Below are positions 1 through 5,835 of a stretch of DNA of 5,835 bases, one piece after another. A model generated the notes under the pieces. That model saw nothing but the letters and a program-made list of their open reading frames with translations. It was not told the DNA's origin and ran no database searches. The position numbers and the translations under genes were made by a program. Source of the stretch: a virus; IMG/VR virus record IMGVR_UViG_3300045988_014863, positions 1 through 5,835 of that record. One strand, given 5' to 3'. The stretch's first letter is position 1, and every line of letters starts with the position of its first letter.

Positions 1-55
1 TGTATCCTTGCCGCCAGATTTCTTCTTTGTGTTCTTGATAATAGTGATCGCCGAG
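1..55. repeat. Terminal direct repeat, copy 1, identical to 5781-5835. This is a circular-genome assembly overlap, and the unit length is 5780 bp.
   Basis: Positions 1-55 and 5781-5835 are identical over 55 of 55 nt. The VP4 reading frame stays in phase across the join (5833-5835 corresponds to 53-55). Confidence 0.95.
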
Positions 56-802
56 GCCCGGCTTTAGACTCATGCATGCAAATGGTTTTGTTTGCCCTAA
101 CTCGTAGTATGCATTTGCTTTCTTTCCGTCTATTTCGTACATTTTTTTTGTAACGTATCCTGCAACATACCTATAGGTTTCTGGAACTGCTTGTGCTATC
201 TGTATTTGACCCATTCCCCATAGGTTTTCTAACCATTTACTGGTATAGTATCCGTTGTGGTGAATCTTGTATAGTTGTTCTAGGTCTGTTGGTCTCCATC
301 CGTATAGAATCATATGATAATGCGGTCTCGCTGTCTGTTCTCCGTACTCCCCCGCTACAAAATAGCGTAATTTGCCCCTGTAAGCCTTTCTGAGACGTTT
401 TAAGAACTTCTGAATATCTTCATACAGTAAAATTTGAACACTGCTAGGGAGCTTCTCTCCCGGTTTCCATGTGTACTGCACCTTTCGCATGATTTCACCT
501 GTTTTTACTATCATGCCTGGTATATGGTCATCATCATAAGTTAGCGTGATAAACCATACTTGTTCTTTCGGATAATCTCTTGCTTCTAGTTCTATTCGTG
601 TTGTCCAATCCTCTCGCTGCCTGATTCTGCATCCGATGCACTGTCCGCATGGTATCAACATGACTTTTGGATTATACATCAAATCTTCATATTTTAGCTG
701 TTTCCCGCTTAGCTCAGAAAAGCGGGCGAGTGAATAAACTCGTCCGCTCTGTTCTTTATTATCCGGGTTGTACAGCCTTATTAATGGCTTGTAACAACTC
801 AT
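1..802 (-). CDS. VP4: Replication initiation protein VP4 (HUH rolling-circle endonuclease, phiX174 A-like), N-terminal 267 codons. The gene continues across the circular junction into 5563-5780.
   Basis: Manual minus-strand translation starting at ATG 802..800 gives MSCYKPLIRLYNPDNKEQSGRVYSLARF...PCGQCIGCR...VWFITLTYDD (motif I)...ARPHYHMILYG (HUH motif II)...YRYVAGYVTKK (motif III, two Tyr three residues apart as in phiX A, YVAKYVNKK). SD AGGTGA sits 9 nt upstream. The ATG overlaps the VP2 stop as ATGA. The ORF track missed this gene because it runs off the window edge. Confidence 0.9.
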   Translation of the reverse strand, partial: MSCYKPLIRLYNPDNKEQSGRVYSLARFSELSGKQLKYEDLMYNPKVMLIPCGQCIGCRIRQREDWTTRIELEARDYPKEQVWFITLTYDDDHIPGMIVKTGEIMRKVQYTWKPGEKLPSSVQILLYEDIQKFLKRLRKAYRGKLRYFVAGEYGEQTARPHYHMILYGWRPTDLEQLYKIHHNGYYTSKWLENLWGMGQIQIAQAVPETYRYVAGYVTKKMYEIDGKKANAYYELGQTKPFACMSLKPGLGDHYYQEHKEEIWRQGY

Positions 803-1683
803 TTCAGATAATCACCTGGCTTTCTTTTTTCACCATAGTTTCCCGTTTTATTCTGCATAGGGTTTTCTGTTTTGTGCCCTACTTTGTTACTGCCGCTTGT
901 CTTTTTCCCTGTTTTATTCGTGATGTCCCCGATTGTTTTGCTTGTTTCGTTATCGATATTCGTTAGCGCTTTCATTAGGCCGTAAGGACTTAGATGTGTT
1001 TCACTTAGCATTTGATTCCAGCTTTGTGAAGCGTTATACCAATCCGATTTACTCCAGCTTTCGCTGCTGTACGAGTTTGGAACAAATCCGTTACTTCTGC
1101 TTACTCCTAGTGCGCTGCTGCTTGCTAGTCCCATGCTTGCTCCGCTGATTGTTCCCGCTGACCCTCCCGGTGTGCTTGCTCCGCCGTTTGCAAATGCCAG
1201 AATCGGGTTTAAACCTGCTTTTTTCATGTCTTCAACAGTTCTTTGATATGCTGTGCTGCTCATATACTCTTGGAACTGTCTGTTTGCTAGTGCTTCGGCG
1301 CTGTTGTAATTCATTGCGGCTGTGTTTTCGATGTGGTTATATATTCCTTGCATGATGGCCTGCATCGTGTTGTATCCCATCTGTTGCAGCATGCTTTTTT
1401 GGTTGTATTTTTGCTGTGCTACGCCCTCTGCGCTTTGGTATCCGTACGCTTGCTGTAAATATTTTGCGATTTGTTCATCATTTGTTCCGGATAGACTTCC
1501 GCTTGCGGACATTCCACCGCCTTGGCCTACGCTTCCGCCTCTGCTTTGCCCTGTTCCTTCATTTCCCCAACCGCCAAAAGTGCCGGTAACGTTTTTTACT
1601 GCGTTTGTTATGCTTCCTATGCTCGTTGCAACATTGCCGAGTATGCTTGTTCCTTTTATAATTGCTCCCCATGGAATTGCCAT
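799..1683 (-). CDS. VP2: VP2 minor capsid / DNA pilot protein (Gly/Ser/Thr/Gln-rich, 294 aa).
   Basis: The ORF lies immediately downstream of VP1 in the conserved VP1-VP2 position. Low-complexity G/S/T/Q/N composition (GGWGNEGTGQSRGGSVGQGGGMSASGSLSG) is characteristic of Microviridae VP2/H-like pilot proteins. Its stop overlaps the VP4 start. Confidence 0.8.
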   Translation of the reverse strand: MAIPWGAIIKGTSILGNVATSIGSITNAVKNVTGTFGGWGNEGTGQSRGGSVGQGGGMSASGSLSGTNDEQIAKYLQQAYGYQSAEGVAQQKYNQKSMLQQMGYNTMQAIMQGIYNHIENTAAMNYNSAEALANRQFQEYMSSTAYQRTVEDMKKAGLNPILAFANGGASTPGGSAGTISGASMGLASSSALGVSRSNGFVPNSYSSESWSKSDWYNASQSWNQMLSETHLSPYGLMKALTNIDNETSKTIGDITNKTGKKTSGSNKVGHKTENPMQNKTGNYGEKRKPGDYLK

Positions 1684-1723: not shown

Positions 1724-3406
1724 TTACAGTTTTTCCAGTCCCGGCACGCTGTACAGCGGCATGCAACGAGTAGTATTGTTTATTACTCGGATTGCTCCAA
1801 AGAACTGCGGCTCGTTCTGCTCAATCAAAGTTCTTGCAATTTCGTCTTTTCCTTCGGTCATCCATTCTTGACTGAGTGTTGGCACCTCCTTGTAGTTGTC
1901 TGCATAGTGCCAGAAGTCCAGCGTTCCTTCTGCATTGCTTCGCATTTTACCACTTACCCGGTTCGGCTTCATTCGATAGTCGGCCCAGGCCTCCTGGTAG
2001 CCGAACGTATCATCATCTGTTGCCTTTCCTGTAACCATGATTTCTTTCTTCTTTACTGGCTGTTCGCCTATATTTGCGAACTGCGGAAAGTAGTAGTCCA
2101 GTCTGTCGCTACGGCTCCAGAAGCGTTCCAAGCCCTGCTGGTAGCTGTGATCGTGACGCACGCACATGACGCCGATAACAAAGCCGTGCTCCTCAAAGCT
2201 CTTTGTGAAGGAACTTTCGTTAATGGGTGTTACTGACATTGCACCGGTTTCACCGATAGGTGTATCATTTGCTGCCTGCTGTCCGCTGGTCTGCACGATT
2301 TGGTTGATGTTCACATGATAGCGTCCGCCGCCCAGATATTCCGGCACCTGAACGGTTTTGTCGCTGATGCTTACACCAAAAAGCGCACGTACCTGTTCAC
2401 GGTATCGACTGCCGCCGCGTGCCAGTGCTTCATAATAGTGCTGAACTGCAAAAGCTTGGCGCAACTGGTTGATTGTTGCTGCTTCAATTTCGCTGAGGTC
2501 GGTTGCAATGTATCTTGAGACAGAGACTCCGCCTGTCTGTTCTGTTGAGCCTAGTGCTATGATTGGGTCATTTGCAGTGTTCTGTGTTAGATATGCCGCC
2601 TTTCCACTCATCCAAATTAGAGTTGGGTTCGTTGGCCCGTTGATTCCTTCGTCGTCGTACATTTTTACAGGCGCATTTCCTGTTAGTGCGAGGGTCACTT
2701 CCGGTCCGCGCTGAGGATACGGCATACAGGATGAGAAGTAGTCGTGGAAGCGATTTACCGGCAGGCAGTATCCGCCGCAGATAGCATATTTGAGAATATT
2801 TTCTTTGGATACTTCGCTTTCATTCCCGCTTCCCGCTTCGTATTCTATGTCATCGTCTCCTGTACTGAAGACTGCCGGGTTCCCTACGTTTTGGTCTCTG
2901 AAAAATTCATTCCAGATTTTAATGTATGCTCTGACGGGGAGTGCGTTTATTTTTACGTTTCCCGTTTCTCCCTTTTTGATAATTTTTGCCGGGACTCCCA
3001 TATAGTCTAGAATGCTGTTTGTGTCTGGGTAGTCTCTTGCTGCTCCACCTTTATCGTTATCGATTATGATATTCGGCACTTTGTATGTTTTTGTCGGCAT
3101 CCACGGGTTATCGTCTGCTTCTCCCATGAACCGCTTGAAGTTATCCCATAGGATTCGGTTTGGGCAGTAGAAGTAGTAGAAGTCAATGTATGCATCGTCG
3201 AACACGGGATATTTCGGCGTAGTCATTCGGATGATTGCCGCTGTTTGCACGTTGAACGTATCGCCGGGAAGGACTTCGTCAACGTAGAACGGAATCAGTT
3301 TTCCTGCATCGAAAGTCGTGAGGATATTCTGGTCTCGATTGAACCGCGTTCTACTGACGTGTGTTTCCGGTACCTGGTTAAAGTGTCTTTCATTATTCCG
3401 GTTCAT
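1724..3406 (-). CDS. VP1: VP1 major capsid protein (Microviridae F-like, gokushovirus type), 560 aa.
   Basis: The N-terminus, HFNQVPETHVSRTRFNRDQNILTTFDAGKLIPFYVDEVLPGDTF, is the canonical gokushovirus VP1 signature (compare Chp2 ...TTFDAGYLIPIFCDEVLPGDTF). Size of 560 aa is typical. SD GAGGAAA sits 7 nt upstream. Confidence 0.95.
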   Translation of the reverse strand: MNRNNERHFNQVPETHVSRTRFNRDQNILTTFDAGKLIPFYVDEVLPGDTFNVQTAAIIRMTTPKYPVFDDAYIDFYYFYCPNRILWDNFKRFMGEADDNPWMPTKTYKVPNIIIDNDKGGAARDYPDTNSILDYMGVPAKIIKKGETGNVKINALPVRAYIKIWNEFFRDQNVGNPAVFSTGDDDIEYEAGSGNESEVSKENILKYAICGGYCLPVNRFHDYFSSCMPYPQRGPEVTLALTGNAPVKMYDDEGINGPTNPTLIWMSGKAAYLTQNTANDPIIALGSTEQTGGVSVSRYIATDLSEIEAATINQLRQAFAVQHYYEALARGGSRYREQVRALFGVSISDKTVQVPEYLGGGRYHVNINQIVQTSGQQAANDTPIGETGAMSVTPINESSFTKSFEEHGFVIGVMCVRHDHSYQQGLERFWSRSDRLDYYFPQFANIGEQPVKKKEIMVTGKATDDDTFGYQEAWADYRMKPNRVSGKMRSNAEGTLDFWHYADNYKEVPTLSQEWMTEGKDEIARTLIEQNEPQFFGAIRVINNTTRCMPLYSVPGLEKL

Positions 3407-3788
3407 TGTTTTCCTCGTCCTTTTTTTGTTTGTTTGCTGTCTCTTCCTGCATTTGTTTCAGTTCCATTGCTTTGGCCTGCGCCGTTGCCATCATTGCGTG
3501 GTATTCGTGGATGTTGGTAGGCCATTCGGTGATATCCATAATTTCGTCTGTTTTTGCGCTGTCTGCAAGACTTTTTGCAAATTCCGGGTCAAAGCTTGCT
3601 TTGCGGACAATGTTTTTGATGTCGCATTCGTCTGCATAGCTTTCAATTTCTGCTTGAGTGTCGATTGGCTCTGTTTCAATCAGTTTTTTGTTGCCTTTTT
3701 CGTCCTTCCCCCAGACGTACTGTTTGCGTAGTTTTTCGCCTGAATCCGTAAAGAAGGGCATTCGCTCTTCTTCATATCGCTTATTCAT
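3393..3788 (-). CDS. VP3: VP3-like internal scaffolding protein (131 aa, acidic).
   Basis: It lies immediately upstream of VP1, overlapping it by 14 nt. It is acidic with a Glu-rich C-terminus. It contains an ECDIKNI motif resembling the ECDINNI motif I recall in gokushovirus VP3 proteins. SD GGGAGGG sits 8 nt upstream. Confidence 0.6.
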   Translation of the reverse strand: MNKRYEEERMPFFTDSGEKLRKQYVWGKDEKGNKKLIETEPIDTQAEIESYADECDIKNIVRKASFDPEFAKSLADSAKTDEIMDITEWPTNIHEYHAMMATAQAKAMELKQMQEETANKQKKDEENNEPE

Positions 3789-4020: not shown

Positions 4021-4140
4021 GTTTTTCTCCTTTACAGTCTGATGCCGCCCCTCATGGGTTTCTGGCTGAGATTAATACTCTTCGTTTTGCGTGCCGTCAC
4101 GTTGAACATTCGTTTGTCAGTTCGTCTCGGCATTCTCTGC

Positions 4141-4362
4141 CTATGCTTCATTGTTGTACTCCCTTCGGATTAGTTCCAATTGGATGTCGTTTGCCCATGC
4201 TTTCATTATCCAGATTCGGTCAATGATTTTTTTTGCGTCTTCTAAGTTGGATACTTTTTTAATCATTTTGTATCCAGCTTCAATTTCTTTGTATAACTTG
4301 TCTGCTTCGATTCGTAGGTCTTTTTCGGTCTGGTCTCTCACGTTCCATGTCTTGTGCAGCAT
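4141..4362 (-). CDS. Hypothetical small protein, 73 aa (charged, predicted helical).
   Basis: SD AAGGAG lies 8-9 nt upstream of the ATG. Composition is coding-like and Lys/Glu/Ile-rich. It sits in the sense-strand gene array. Confidence 0.55.
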   Translation of the reverse strand: MLHKTWNVRDQTEKDLRIEADKLYKEIEAGYKMIKKVSNLEDAKKIIDRIWIMKAWANDIQLELIRREYNNEA

Positions 4363-4367
4363 TGTCT

Positions 4368-4472
4368 TTACTCCTTTTCCTTCAGAATGTGGTAAATCTG
4401 GTCCAGCTTTTCCAGCACGGTTTTGATCAGCTGGATTGCTTCTCGCAGATCCTTGACTTTGATTAATGCCAT
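4368..4472 (-). CDS. Candidate unannotated 34-aa ORF (MALIKVKDLREAIQLIKTVLEKLDQIYHILKEKE). It is below the ORF-track size cut-off.
   Basis: ATG at 4472..4470 lies 3 nt after the peptidase stop. SD-like AGGGGG sits about 8 nt upstream. The amphipathic, helix-like sequence fills the gap between the peptidase and 73-aa genes exactly and ends 5 nt before the next ATG. Confidence 0.3.
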   Translation of the reverse strand: MALIKVKDLREAIQLIKTVLEKLDQIYHILKEKE

Positions 4473-4475
4473 AGG

Positions 4476-4862
4476 TTACACCCCCTTTCTGTATCGCTTT
4501 TCACGCACATCAACGTGTGTGAAGTTTGTGTATTTGATTACGCCGCCTTGCTCCATGATTTCATCTGCGTACTTTGCGACTTCTTTGCTGCTGTGTCCTT
4601 TTACTACGATATCCGCCGCCATTCCTTTGCAGTGGTACGAGTTTGGCGCTCCGCCTGCTTTTGCATTCCAGCTTGGCGTGCGGTATCCGCTGTTGATGAT
4701 GACTGGTGCGTTGAAGTGGTTTCGGATTTTTTCCAGTATTTCAATCAGTTCTAAGCAGTACAGGAATTCTTTTGTTCCGTCTTTGCATTTGAATTCTTTT
4801 CCTGTAAAATGCTCTGCCCCTATAAGCTTTCCTTCGTATTCGTCAGCGTAAATCGATCTCAT
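4476..4862 (-). CDS. Peptidase M15 family (VanY / D-Ala-D-Ala carboxypeptidase-like, Peptidase_M15_3/4-type) peptidoglycan hydrolase, the putative lysis enzyme; 128 aa.
   Basis: The zinc-peptidase signature SxHxxGxAxD is present as SYHCKGMAADIV, with SGYRTP upstream and the HxD element (FTHVDV) downstream. Size is about 130 aa. SD AAAGGAAG sits 7 nt upstream. Confidence 0.85.
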   Translation of the reverse strand: MRSIYADEYEGKLIGAEHFTGKEFKCKDGTKEFLYCLELIEILEKIRNHFNAPVIINSGYRTPSWNAKAGGAPNSYHCKGMAADIVVKGHSSKEVAKYADEIMEQGGVIKYTNFTHVDVREKRYRKGV

Positions 4863-5119: not shown

Positions 5120-5148
5120 ATTATAACACTATTCTTTACCTTTGTCAA
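5120..5148 (-). promoter_or_regulatory. Near-consensus sigma70 promoter on the sense (minus) strand: -35 TTGACA (5148..5143), 17-bp spacer, extended -10 TGtTATAAT (5128..5120), with an A-rich UP-like tract upstream (5172..5149).
   Basis: Plus-strand tgtcaa at 5143-5148 and attata at 5120-5125 are separated by exactly 17 nt. TG lies 1 nt upstream of the -10. The sense strand reads GGAAAAGTTTCAAAAAAGAC immediately upstream of the -35. An SD and ATG follow about 12 nt after the predicted TSS. Confidence 0.6.
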
Positions 5149-5174
5149 GTCTTTTTTGAAACTTTTCCTAAATG

Positions 5175-5215
5175 GTCATGCGGTCGGCGCTGGTGCGCCG
5201 AATGAAAAGCATGAC
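5175..5215. repeat. Bipartite imperfect hairpin GTCATGC-ggt-CGGCGC-tggt-GCGCCG-aatgaaaa-GCATGAC, upstream of the promoter.
   Basis: Outer 7-bp and inner 6-bp inverted repeats were verified by reverse complementing. It lies about 26 nt upstream of the -35 box on the sense strand. Confidence 0.4.
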
Positions 5216-5256
5216 GTAACTTTCGGCTTTCGCTCGCCGGACGGCCTTTATTAGTT

Positions 5257-5418
5257 TTCAACATTTTCAACATAGTTTTCAACATTTCAACATTGTTAAA
5301 CTTTAGCACAACAGAGTGTTTCAACATTTCAACAAGTTTTCAACAAAGTTTTCAACATTGTTTTTTGTTTGTTTTTAACGCTCTAACGTTTTAAAATTAT
5401 ACTTTTCAACTTTTCAAC
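5257..5418. repeat. Iteron array: ten direct copies of TTTCAACA(T) in three clusters (4+4+2), with 8-12 bp phasing inside each cluster.
   Basis: TTCAAC cores sit at 5257, 5266, 5278, 5286, 5320, 5328, 5339, 5351, 5405 and 5413, all in the same orientation. This is a non-coding AT-rich region between the VP4 terminator and the promoter. Confidence 0.7.
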
Positions 5419-5455
5419 ATACCCTACTACTACGACTACAACAAGTTATATTATA

Positions 5456-5506
5456 ATACGTGCGCACGCGTGCGCGTGTAGTTTTCGCGTGCACGTGTGT
5501 GCGCGA
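5456..5506. repeat. Two GC-rich alternating purine-pyrimidine palindromic tracts. The first spans 5456-5480 and contains the perfect 14-bp palindrome GCGCACGCGTGCGC at 5462-5475. The second spans 5486-5506 and contains the palindrome CGTGCACG. They are flanked by an AT-rich tract (5441-5457).
   Basis: Perfect R-Y alternation runs over 25 nt and over 21 nt. The palindromes were verified by reverse complement. The two tracts are also partly complementary to each other. They are embedded in otherwise AT-rich DNA. Confidence 0.6.
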
Positions 5507-5518
5507 TTAGATTAATAA

Positions 5519-5550
5519 AGCCCAGTACTCTACTTGATAGGTACTGGGCT
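5519..5550 (-). terminator. Hairpin AGCCCAGTAC-(12-nt loop)-GTACTGGGCT followed by TTTATTAAT on the sense strand, 13 nt after the VP4 stop. Putative rho-independent terminator ending the genome-long transcription unit.
   Basis: A 10-bp perfect inverted repeat (5519-5528 pairing with 5541-5550). A U-rich tail (revcomp of 5509-5518) lies immediately 3' on the sense strand. Confidence 0.45.
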
Positions 5551-5562
5551 AGGTGACACCAA

Positions 5563-5835
5563 CTATAAAATACCACGCTTTTTCGTTTGTTTTTTGGTGA
5601 CACGTTCTTTTGTCTCTAGGACTGTCTTGTAGTCCTGTGCTTCTAGCTGTAGACGCTTCTGCTCTATGGCGTTTTTCTGTCTGTTTTGCTTAATTCTCCA
5701 CAATCTTTGTGGGTTTTCCGCTTCCATCTGCTTTTCGTAGTATCTTGGAATCTGCGCTTGTTTTCCGTTTGTGCATTGAATGTATCCTTGCCGCCAGATT
5801 TCTTCTTTGTGTTCTTGATAATAGTGATCGCCGAG
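5563..5835 (-). CDS. VP4: VP4 replication initiator, C-terminal part (72 codons plus stop; 5781-5835 duplicates 1-55). The full protein is 339 aa.
   Basis: The frame is continuous with 1..802 across the junction. The tail reads ...QCTNGKQAQIPRYYEKQMEAENPQRLWRIKQNRQKNAIEQKRLQLEAQDYKTVLETKERVTKKQTKKRGIL and ends at TAG (5565..5563). This Lys/Arg/Gln-rich tail is typical of gokushovirus VP4 C-termini. Confidence 0.85.
   Translation of the reverse strand, partial: LGDHYYQEHKEEIWRQGYIQCTNGKQAQIPRYYEKQMEAENPQRLWRIKQNRQKNAIEQKRLQLEAQDYKTVLETKERVTKKQTKKRGIL
5781..5835. repeat. Terminal direct repeat, copy 2 (a duplicate of 1-55 from linearising a circle).
   Basis: Exact 55-nt identity with the window start. 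Confidence 0.95.

Follow-up and report, generated by a model that had tools for sequence, protein, structure and literature searches.

Peptidase genes of the M15_3 family have been known in the Microviridae since 2012, when Roux et al. reported them in 11 human-associated genomes, five of them Gokushovirinae, and noted that the Alpavirinae of the human gut likewise carry them (PMC3394797). In that study the microviral genes were shown to be horizontally acquired, homologs were found in the holin-endolysin cassettes of phages and prophages, the gokushoviral peptidases formed a clade akin to those of Faecalibacterium and the Clostridiales, and the enzyme was proposed to be an endolysin which dissolves the cell wall as infection ends (PMC3394797). 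Kirchberger et al. (2022) counted peptidases as one of the two recurrent classes of microviral accessory genes, with documented recombination of the peptidase region (PMC9239249). Marine Occultatumvirinae isolates also possess M15 peptidases (PMC11499846), and the microviral enzymes are treated as lysis-associated (PMC9239249, PMC11499846). A literature search revealed no experimental work, biochemical or genetic, on microviral peptidases or holins. The gene described here is one more allele of this class, and the novelty implied by a first-pass annotation of the same DNA does not stand, since such genes were described in gut Gokushovirinae in 2012 (PMC3394797), were discussed later (PMC9239249) and are annotated in GenBank. 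What is added is a clade-wide negative search for holins and overprinted genes, together with a backbone that is common to relatives without the peptidase.

The window, by which we mean the whole stretch of 5835 nt that was analysed, carries a 55-nt direct repeat at its termini and thus closes to a circle of 5780 nt. It is a complete gokushovirus-type gut microvirus and is not phiX-like. Every gene is on the minus strand (Table 1), and VP1, VP2, VP3, VP4 and VP5 lie together on one strand of a circle in the ~4.5–6 kb range of gokushovirus-type genomes. The Pfam matches of the capsid, scaffold and VP5 proteins (Phage_F, Chlamy_scaf and Phage_ORF5) bear out the first-pass assignment to the microviruses. 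Megablast returned GenBank records named 'Gokushovirus' or 'Human gut gokushovirus' at 76–82% nucleotide identity over part of the genome. The lysis protein E of phiX174, which had been taken as the baseline, is the wrong comparator for this virus, since gokushoviruses are a group without E (PMC7062461).

Table 1. Coordinates of the genes and other features of the 5780-nt circular genome, with the match or occurrence recorded for each.
Feature	Coordinates	Strand	Match or occurrence
VP4/Rep, 339 aa	5563-5780 + 1-802 (across circle junction)	-	
VP2 pilot protein	799-1683	-	phrog_8742, 2e-110
VP2 N-terminal ~30 residues, membrane-active-looking	1594-1683	-	composition, moderate hydrophobicity
VP1 capsid protein	1724-3406	-	Phage_F, 1.2e-134
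VP3 scaffold protein	3393-3788	-	Chlamy_scaf
VP5, 79 aa	3781-4020	-	Phage_ORF5
orf39, 39 aa, very basic (pI 12)	4032-4151	-	43/43 relatives, 92% identity
orf73, 73-aa hypothetical protein, no TM segment	4141-4362	-	40/43 relatives
orf34, 34 aa, amphipathic, heptad-patterned	4368-4472	-	42/43 relatives, median 88% identity
M15_3 peptidase, 128 aa, ATG start	4476-4862	-	Pfam Peptidase_M15_3
orf61, 61 aa, basic (pI 9.8), no TM segment	4909-5094	-	9/43 relatives
Putative sigma-70-type promoter, TTGACA-17-TATAAT, TG before -10	5120-5148	-	12/12 consensus matches
Hairpin, 10-bp stem and T-rich tail, directly after VP4 stop	5519-5550	-	compensatory changes, z = -4.6

Homologs of the peptidase are widespread. 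Using tblastn, 528 phage records were matched, with annotated gokushoviruses at 47–74% identity; their GenBank labels read 'peptidase M15' (KX513877, KX513864, KX513868), 'similar to peptidase' (MG945xxx) or 'peptidase' (the Dulem viruses, PP511xxx). A large protein database yielded more than 1000 homologs, the best 120 of which show 71–91% identity; those of the 120 that are on long contigs are mostly on contigs of ~5.2–6.1 kb. IMG/VR contains 49 peptidase loci, 43 of them microvirus-sized genomes, and identity to the metagenomic relatives is 71–94%.

The 128-amino acid protein matches Pfam Peptidase_M15_3 (PF08291) at E=5.4e-24 (84.8 bits, cut-off 23.2), covering the profile from end to end (positions 2–108 of 108), which is far beyond chance. 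It also matches Peptidase_M15_2/DUF882 (E=2.4e-7; 31 bits against a cut-off of 27). Of the two Pfam families that the first-pass annotation had expected, M15_3 was therefore recovered above its cut-off, whereas M15_4 remained below it (E=0.087). Its term 'VanY-like' holds at the level of clan and fold but not of family: the protein belongs with M15A/Peptidase_M15_3, and VanY (PF02557) gave no Pfam match at E≤0.1. Among the PHROGs the protein falls to phrog_894, 'endolysin' (1.1e-35). In NCBIfam the housekeeping L,D-endopeptidase MepK was matched far below threshold (43.7 bits against 185).

The motif SYHCKGMAADIV occupies residues 75–86 and the H-x-D element is H116-V-D118. An alignment of 25 homologs contains 49 invariant columns, including R61, H77, D84, H116 and D118, so that the reading of the gene as a zinc peptidase of the M15 type with an SxHxxGxAxD motif and an HxD element is upheld at the level of sequence. 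With phmmer the PDB yielded no more than a partial alignment to the D-Ala-D-Ala carboxypeptidase of Streptomyces albus (1LBU), over peptidase residues 51–87, in which GYR is paired with GFR and NSYHCKGMAAD with NSRHMYGHAAD (viral/Streptomyces). From this conservation H116 would be the third metal ligand and D118 a ligand or a base. The AlphaFold2 model (pLDDT 83.4, pTM 0.80), when submitted to Foldseek, had 1LBU, a Zn DD-peptidase, as its top match (probability 1.00, TM 0.51), followed by Hedgehog N-terminal domains, Ply500, VanY/VanXY, LdcB, ChiX, LysECD7 and LysB4. The predicted fold is thus that of the LAS 'Hedgehog/DD-peptidase' group.

The peptidase is a bare catalytic domain, its first 15 residues being variable among homologs. 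It is basic (pI 8.7, charge +2.9) with a maximum hydrophobic moment (muH) of 0.48. Its C-terminal tail, REKRYRKGV, shows no variation within the clade at R120, E121, Y124, R125 or K126, and the model gives residues 125–128 as disordered (pLDDT <50). The final codons overlap the Shine-Dalgarno sequence of orf34, which may be a partial cause of the conservation of the tail. Across 43 genomes the median dN/dS of the peptidase is 0.20, near those of the core genes VP1 (0.14), VP3 (0.19) and VP2 (0.24); that of orf73 is 0.19. Judged by its sequence and predicted fold, the gene encodes a functional, selected M15A-type peptidase.

Transmembrane (TM) segments were sought with a hydropathy scan in which stop-to-stop segments of at least 20 amino acids were scored by the Kyte-Doolittle 19-residue mean (KD19) against a threshold of 1.6. 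The peptidase contains no signal peptide, SAR segment or TM segment, its maximum KD19 over the whole protein being 0.43, and its N-terminus, MRSIYADEYEGKLIG, is acidic and not hydrophobic. No TM-like stretch was present in the neighbouring sense ORFs orf34, orf73, VP5 and orf61, so the scan agrees with the first-pass description of these 34-, 73-, 79- and 61-residue proteins, as it does with that of the enzyme's N-terminus. Among the 82 sense-strand segments of the window only one reached the threshold, a 20-amino acid stretch (LVVVVVVGYVEKLK) that was rejected because it falls among the non-coding GTAGTAGTAG/TGTTGAAA repeats, without start codon context. A 60-amino acid ORF at 5145–5327 is probably no gene either, its 'MLK' repeats being TGTTGAAA DNA repeats read in frame. 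On the antisense strand 42 of 89 segments passed, because that strand is T-rich, and this abundance is an artefact of composition.

The same scan revealed no conserved sense-strand TM ORF in the window or in 42 related genomes. The few recurrent hits among the relatives have three sources: translation of the hairpin after VP4, an alternative frame of VP1, and the N-terminus of VP2. The ORF at 5451–5603 ('CHLAQYLSS(R/K)VLG...', 37 of 43 genomes) was rejected as the translated hairpin and T-rich tail that follow the VP4 stop, given the compensatory changes in the stem and the indel variation downstream. The VP1 alternative-frame ORF (2068–2196; 42 amino acids, hydrophobic ALLSASCACVTITA) overlies a conserved portion of the capsid gene, is recurrent and resembles phiX174 E, but it was discarded because the frame carries stop codons in roughly half of the listed relatives and the synonymous variation there is at a normal level (0.80–1.10). 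A hydrophobic antisense ORF of 142 amino acids opposite the peptidase gene (4423–4851) was likewise rejected, having a median of three stops and being open in only one of the 43 genomes. As a positive control, identical scanning of tailed-phage and prophage loci with homologous peptidases detected holin-like ORFs with 1–3 TM segments adjoining or near the peptidase in L044, L047, L052, L053 and L054; a lysozyme also adjoins the peptidase in L044, and the homolog in L049 bears a signal-anchor N-terminus.

Overprinted genes were sought with a synplot-style scan in which observed synonymous differences were set against expectation, in windows of 15 codons, across 39–43 genomes. For VP1, VP2, VP5, orf73 and the peptidase the observed/expected ratio stayed at 0.6 or above throughout. 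In VP3 it fell to 0.57, only at the overlap with the start of VP1. The sole other low stretch, codons ~22–41 of VP4 (minimum 0.44), contains no alternative-frame ORF of at least 25 amino acids, and a hairpin is present there. The first-pass statement that no holin is recognisable is accordingly confirmed for the alternative frames of the window and for the 42 related genomes, with a control that was positive; its suggestion of a small holin concealed in an alternative frame is not, since neither the overprint scan nor the antisense check found one. The absence of a holin and of a signal peptide is robust and holds throughout the clade.

Two GenBank genomes, MG945157 (5257 nt) and MG945423 (5313 nt), retain orf34, orf39, VP5, VP3, VP1, VP2 and VP4, and in neither was the peptidase found, even at E≤10. 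Since the same backbone occurs in relatives that lack it, the peptidase is, by genome comparison, an accessory insertion on a gokushovirus backbone. These relatives must also leave their cells, so the backbone would already possess a release function. The earlier claim that a peptidase implies a different lysis strategy was therefore an overstatement. The 34-residue orf34, which begins 3 nt past the peptidase stop and would form a strongly amphipathic helix (muH 0.68), was rejected as a lysis partner co-acquired with the peptidase, being present in both of these genomes.

Of the other small proteins, orf73 is present in 27 GenBank gokushoviruses, mostly without annotation, and orf39 is, from its composition and position, probably a DNA-binding or packaging protein like phiX174 J or ORF8 of the Chlamydia phages. 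The orf61 gene lies between the promoter and the peptidase behind an AAGGAG Shine-Dalgarno sequence. The N-terminus of VP2 (~30–45 residues) is nearly uncharged, rich in Gly, Ala, Ser and Thr, and moderately hydrophobic: across 42 genomes the maximum KD19 of the first 45 amino acids has a median of 1.12 (range 0.65–1.53), and the first 32 residues include 0–3 charged ones. It is the sole conserved element of the proteome that looks membrane-active and, speculatively, a candidate for breaching the membrane; orf34 is an equally speculative one.

The predicted promoter reads from 5148 to 5120, has an extended -10 and precedes the peptidase start by 286 nt. An exact consensus promoter occurs 55–287 nt upstream of the peptidase in nine of 43 related genomes. 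It is likely, judging by its sequence, to be the start of a single polycistronic transcript, and its position would make the peptidase the first or second gene to be transcribed. Strong GGAG-type Shine-Dalgarno sites precede most genes. The hairpin after VP4 shows compensatory stem changes in four relatives (L024, L031, L033 and L041) and a folding z-score of -4.6; it is predicted to act as a terminator and/or origin where the transcription unit ends.

The closest cellular homologs among GTDB species genomes are in Lachnospiraceae MAGs (48–49% identity), and further near ones are in MAGs of the Christensenellaceae, Eubacteriales and Ruminococcaceae. To our knowledge, neither Shine-Dalgarno sites nor this type of promoter are in use in the Bacteroidota. 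Since the homologs are Clostridia-like and the expression signals are of types which the Bacteroidota do not use, the sequences point to the Firmicutes/Clostridia as the donor and, plausibly, as the host. A Clostridiales link for gokushoviral peptidases had already been raised in 2012 (PMC3394797).

Taken together, these data partly support the first-pass interpretation, while its basic observation is confirmed. The account that we favour, with moderate confidence, is of a soluble M15A endolysin in the cytoplasm which is freed to act by a membrane-breaching function of the backbone. The gene would have been acquired horizontally and, as an accessory gene, reached fixation in a large gokushovirus clade of the mammalian gut. 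It would be transcribed second after the one consensus promoter of the genome, and first in some relatives, and the product would accumulate in soluble form in the cytoplasm, since it lacks a signal peptide or TM segment. Once the cytoplasmic membrane was compromised it would cut the peptide stems or cross-links of murein. The breach would not be the work of a canonical holin but would be supplied by the release function of the gokushovirus backbone. We infer the lytic role of the enzyme, its timing, the bond cleaved and the membrane-breaching partner. By analogy, the tailed-phage homologs that stand beside holin-like ORFs and the 'endolysin' label of phrog_894 argue for such a role. Against it count the incompleteness of any mechanism in which a cytoplasmic endolysin has no known route through the membrane, and expression that is promoter-proximal and probably constitutive, unlike that of late, timed lysis genes, although temporal control is not known as a feature of microviruses. 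Relatives within the same clan, moreover, include carboxypeptidases which trim murein and do not lyse, and by analogy this too may count against a lytic role.

A holin-independent variant of this account, in which a backbone protein without TM segments breaches the membrane late in infection as a functional holin, maybe in a Gram-positive (Clostridia) host, is put forward tentatively and is on balance unlikely. The proteins that may serve in this way are VP2, through its uncharged, Gly/Ala-rich N-terminus, and the amphipathic 34- and 73-amino acid proteins. If the host were indeed a member of the Clostridia, the clade would be one of the few microvirus lineages that infect monoderm bacteria.

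The peptidase could also be carried in or on the capsid as an entry enzyme, or one of both entry and exit, making a local opening in the murein for delivery of the DNA by the T=1 particle and its VP2 pilot; such help would count most in a thick-walled, Clostridium-like host. Virion-associated lytic enzymes are known in phi6 (P5) and PRD1 (P15), the lack of an export signal and of a holin would fit an enzyme that leaves inside or on particles, and the homologs in Clostridia MAGs and the Firmicutes-fitting signals fit a host whose thick wall would be a barrier to a phage without a tail. The tailed-phage homologs, however, are located in holin-endolysin cassettes and not in structural modules, PHROG classes the family under lysis, and the peptidase is absent from relatives whose capsid, pilot and scaffold genes are the same, and is therefore not an integral structural component. 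The protein is a catalytic domain in which no capsid-targeting extension was seen, and there is not much free space inside a T=1 microvirus capsid. We consider carriage by the virion rather improbable, and slightly more so a peptidase that leaves the cytoplasm by itself or with help from the host, through non-classical or host export or through perturbation of the membrane by its basic tail, to be activated when the membrane potential collapses. Some lysins of Gram-positive phages are exported independently of holins, and the basic character of the protein and its clade-wide conserved tail, disordered in the model, are consistent with such a route. Yet that tail is only ~9 residues long, its conservation is partly explicable by the orf34 Shine-Dalgarno overlap, and neither an amphipathic helix of notable moment (maximum muH 0.48) nor a signal or SAR-like segment was found in the protein.

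Far less probable than either is a holin or single-gene lysis protein, overprinted or on the complementary strand, that acts as partner of the peptidase. Overprinted genes of the Bullavirinae are known and have been missed by gene callers (PMC9239249, PMC9865509), Roux et al. saw one ORF on the complementary strand beside a peptidase (PMC3394797), and the window itself has the hydrophobic antisense and VP1-internal ORFs described above. The VP1-internal frame, though, is closed by stops in roughly half of the listed relatives and has a normal synonymous rate, while the antisense frame is open in a single genome of the 43 and owes its hydrophobicity to composition; outside codons ~22–41 of VP4, themselves without an alternative ORF of at least 25 amino acids, there is no unexplained window of low synonymous variation in the genes scanned. 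Just as improbable is a non-lytic role, in which carboxypeptidase trimming of murein stems would confer superinfection exclusion or resistance to lysins. The structurally closest solved enzyme (1LBU) is a DD-carboxypeptidase and the near-match in NCBIfam, far sub-threshold, is the housekeeping MepK, but a cytoplasmic enzyme cannot reach murein substrates for trimming any more than for lysis, and the phage homologs are annotated and positioned as endolysins. The accessory genes of microviruses are, in addition, almost only lysis enzymes and methyltransferases (PMC9239249).

With no conserved TM ORF, no signal of overprinting and relatives that have the same backbone without the peptidase, the clade-wide negative narrows the question of access to the wall to backbone proteins or host factors. 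The Clostridia affinity and the Firmicutes-like expression signals provide a testable host hypothesis for abundant, uncultured gut phages. The route of lysis in gokushoviruses, and the delivery of a signal-less peptidase from a 5.8-kb genome that has no holin, are questions that concern this whole, long-catalogued class.

Of the known systems, phiX174 resembles this virus in that both are Microviridae and both presumably lyse their hosts, but by unrelated mechanisms: E is a small, non-enzymatic TM protein that is overprinted in gene D and inhibits MraY, and such an ORF was not found here. VanY, VanXY and LdcB (M15B, PF02557) share the clan (Peptidase_MD/LAS) and the fold with the viral enzyme, with weaker Foldseek scores (TM 0.40–0.44) and, for the VanY family, no Pfam match at the level given above. 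The Zn D-Ala-D-Ala carboxypeptidase of Streptomyces albus G (1LBU, M15A) is the best match to a solved protein in both sequence and fold, with GxR...NSxHxxGxAAD aligned; the identity is 26% at a TM of 0.51, and the Streptomyces enzyme is a secreted protein of 213 amino acids with an extra N-terminal domain, as against 128 amino acids in the viral peptidase. The M15A/M15_3 endolysins of tailed phages (phrog_894), such as the 'endolysin' of Vibrio phage D478, that of Pectobacterium phage PP1 and the IMG/VR locus L044, have the same catalytic domain at 42–54% identity and presumably the same murein-peptide substrate, but they are flanked by holin-like ORFs with 1–3 TM segments and sometimes have a second lysin or cell-wall-binding domains, all of which the microvirus lacks. 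The M15_3 genes of the gut Gokushovirinae and Alpavirinae agree with the present gene in family, size (~127–130 amino acids), virus group and habitat. Those of the gut gokushoviruses also occupy the same accessory site between VP4 and VP5 and have the same Clostridia-like affinity, so that from them the gene does not differ in kind.

The window is a circularly assembled genome of 5780 nt, with an exact 55-nt direct repeat at its two ends. VP4 (Rep) is absent from ORF lists of the linear window because the gene spans the junction. Variation at synonymous sites, scored as observed over expected differences in 15-codon windows across 39–43 genomes, is clearly reduced at only one place genome-wide, codons ~18–41 of this gene, where the ratio falls as low as 0.44. 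No alternative-frame ORF of at least 25 aa was found within these codons. A predicted DNA hairpin, GAGCGGACGAGT...ACTCGCCCGCT (z = -2.4), overlaps the stretch, which may serve as a cis-acting element for replication or packaging inside Rep.

Coordinates of the features discussed, on the window
Feature	Position	Strand	Remarks
Direct repeat, 55 nt	1-55 = 5781-5835		exact
VP4/Rep, 339 aa	5563-5780 + 1-802	-	crosses circle junction
Low-synonymous stretch of VP4	~680-749	-	
Predicted hairpin in VP4	~721-748		
VP2 start	1594-1683	-	
Small ORFs of 39 aa (pI 12), 73 aa and 34 aa (amphipathic)	4032-4472	-	conserved
Consensus promoter	5148-5120	-	
60-aa 'MLK...' ORF	5145-5327		spurious
TGTTGAAA cluster	5256-5419	-	
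Alternating purine-pyrimidine tract	5460-5505	-	partly palindromic
Hairpin plus T-rich tail	5519-5550	-	directly past VP4 stop; highly conserved

The three small ORFs are kept in 40–43 related genomes and are under purifying selection; GenBank gokushovirus entries carrying them mostly leave them without annotation. In all of the relatives (L001-L043, microvirus-sized genomes bearing peptidase homologues) the pilot protein VP2 starts with ~30–45 nearly uncharged residues rich in Gly, Ala, Ser and Thr, in which small-xxx-small spacing occurs. Apart from this stretch, VP2 is the most divergent core protein (median identity 55%).

Two pig-gut microviruses of 5.26–5.31 kb, L059 (MG945157.1) and L060 (MG945423.1), share the backbone genes and lack the peptidase, and so provide natural 'minus-peptidase' comparators for the peptidase-bearing clade. 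The closest tailed-phage homologue of the peptidase (54% identity) lies on a 74-kb contig, L044. Positions 5616-7378 of this contig hold a two-lysin cassette, in which a lysozyme-like protein of 238 aa and a pair of holin-like ORFs come directly before the M15 peptidase.

Upstream of the consensus promoter, TGTTGAAA is present in nine exact copies, versus 0.32 expected by chance, and most relatives carry 2–9. These copies look like iterated binding sites. The 'MLK...' ORF was rejected as a product of the copies. The alternating purine-pyrimidine tract, GCGCACACACGTGCACGCG...CACGCGCACGCGTGCGCACG, is G+C-rich against the A-rich rest of the genome, and is kept in many relatives. The hairpin past VP4 is a terminator and/or replication origin. 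It consists of AGCCCAGTAC, a 12-nt loop CTATCAAGTAGA and GTACTGGGCT, followed by the T-rich tail; its stem shows compensatory changes among relatives and its folding z is -4.6. On the complementary strand the loop reads ACTTGATA, which is similar to the nick-site core of the phiX174 origin.
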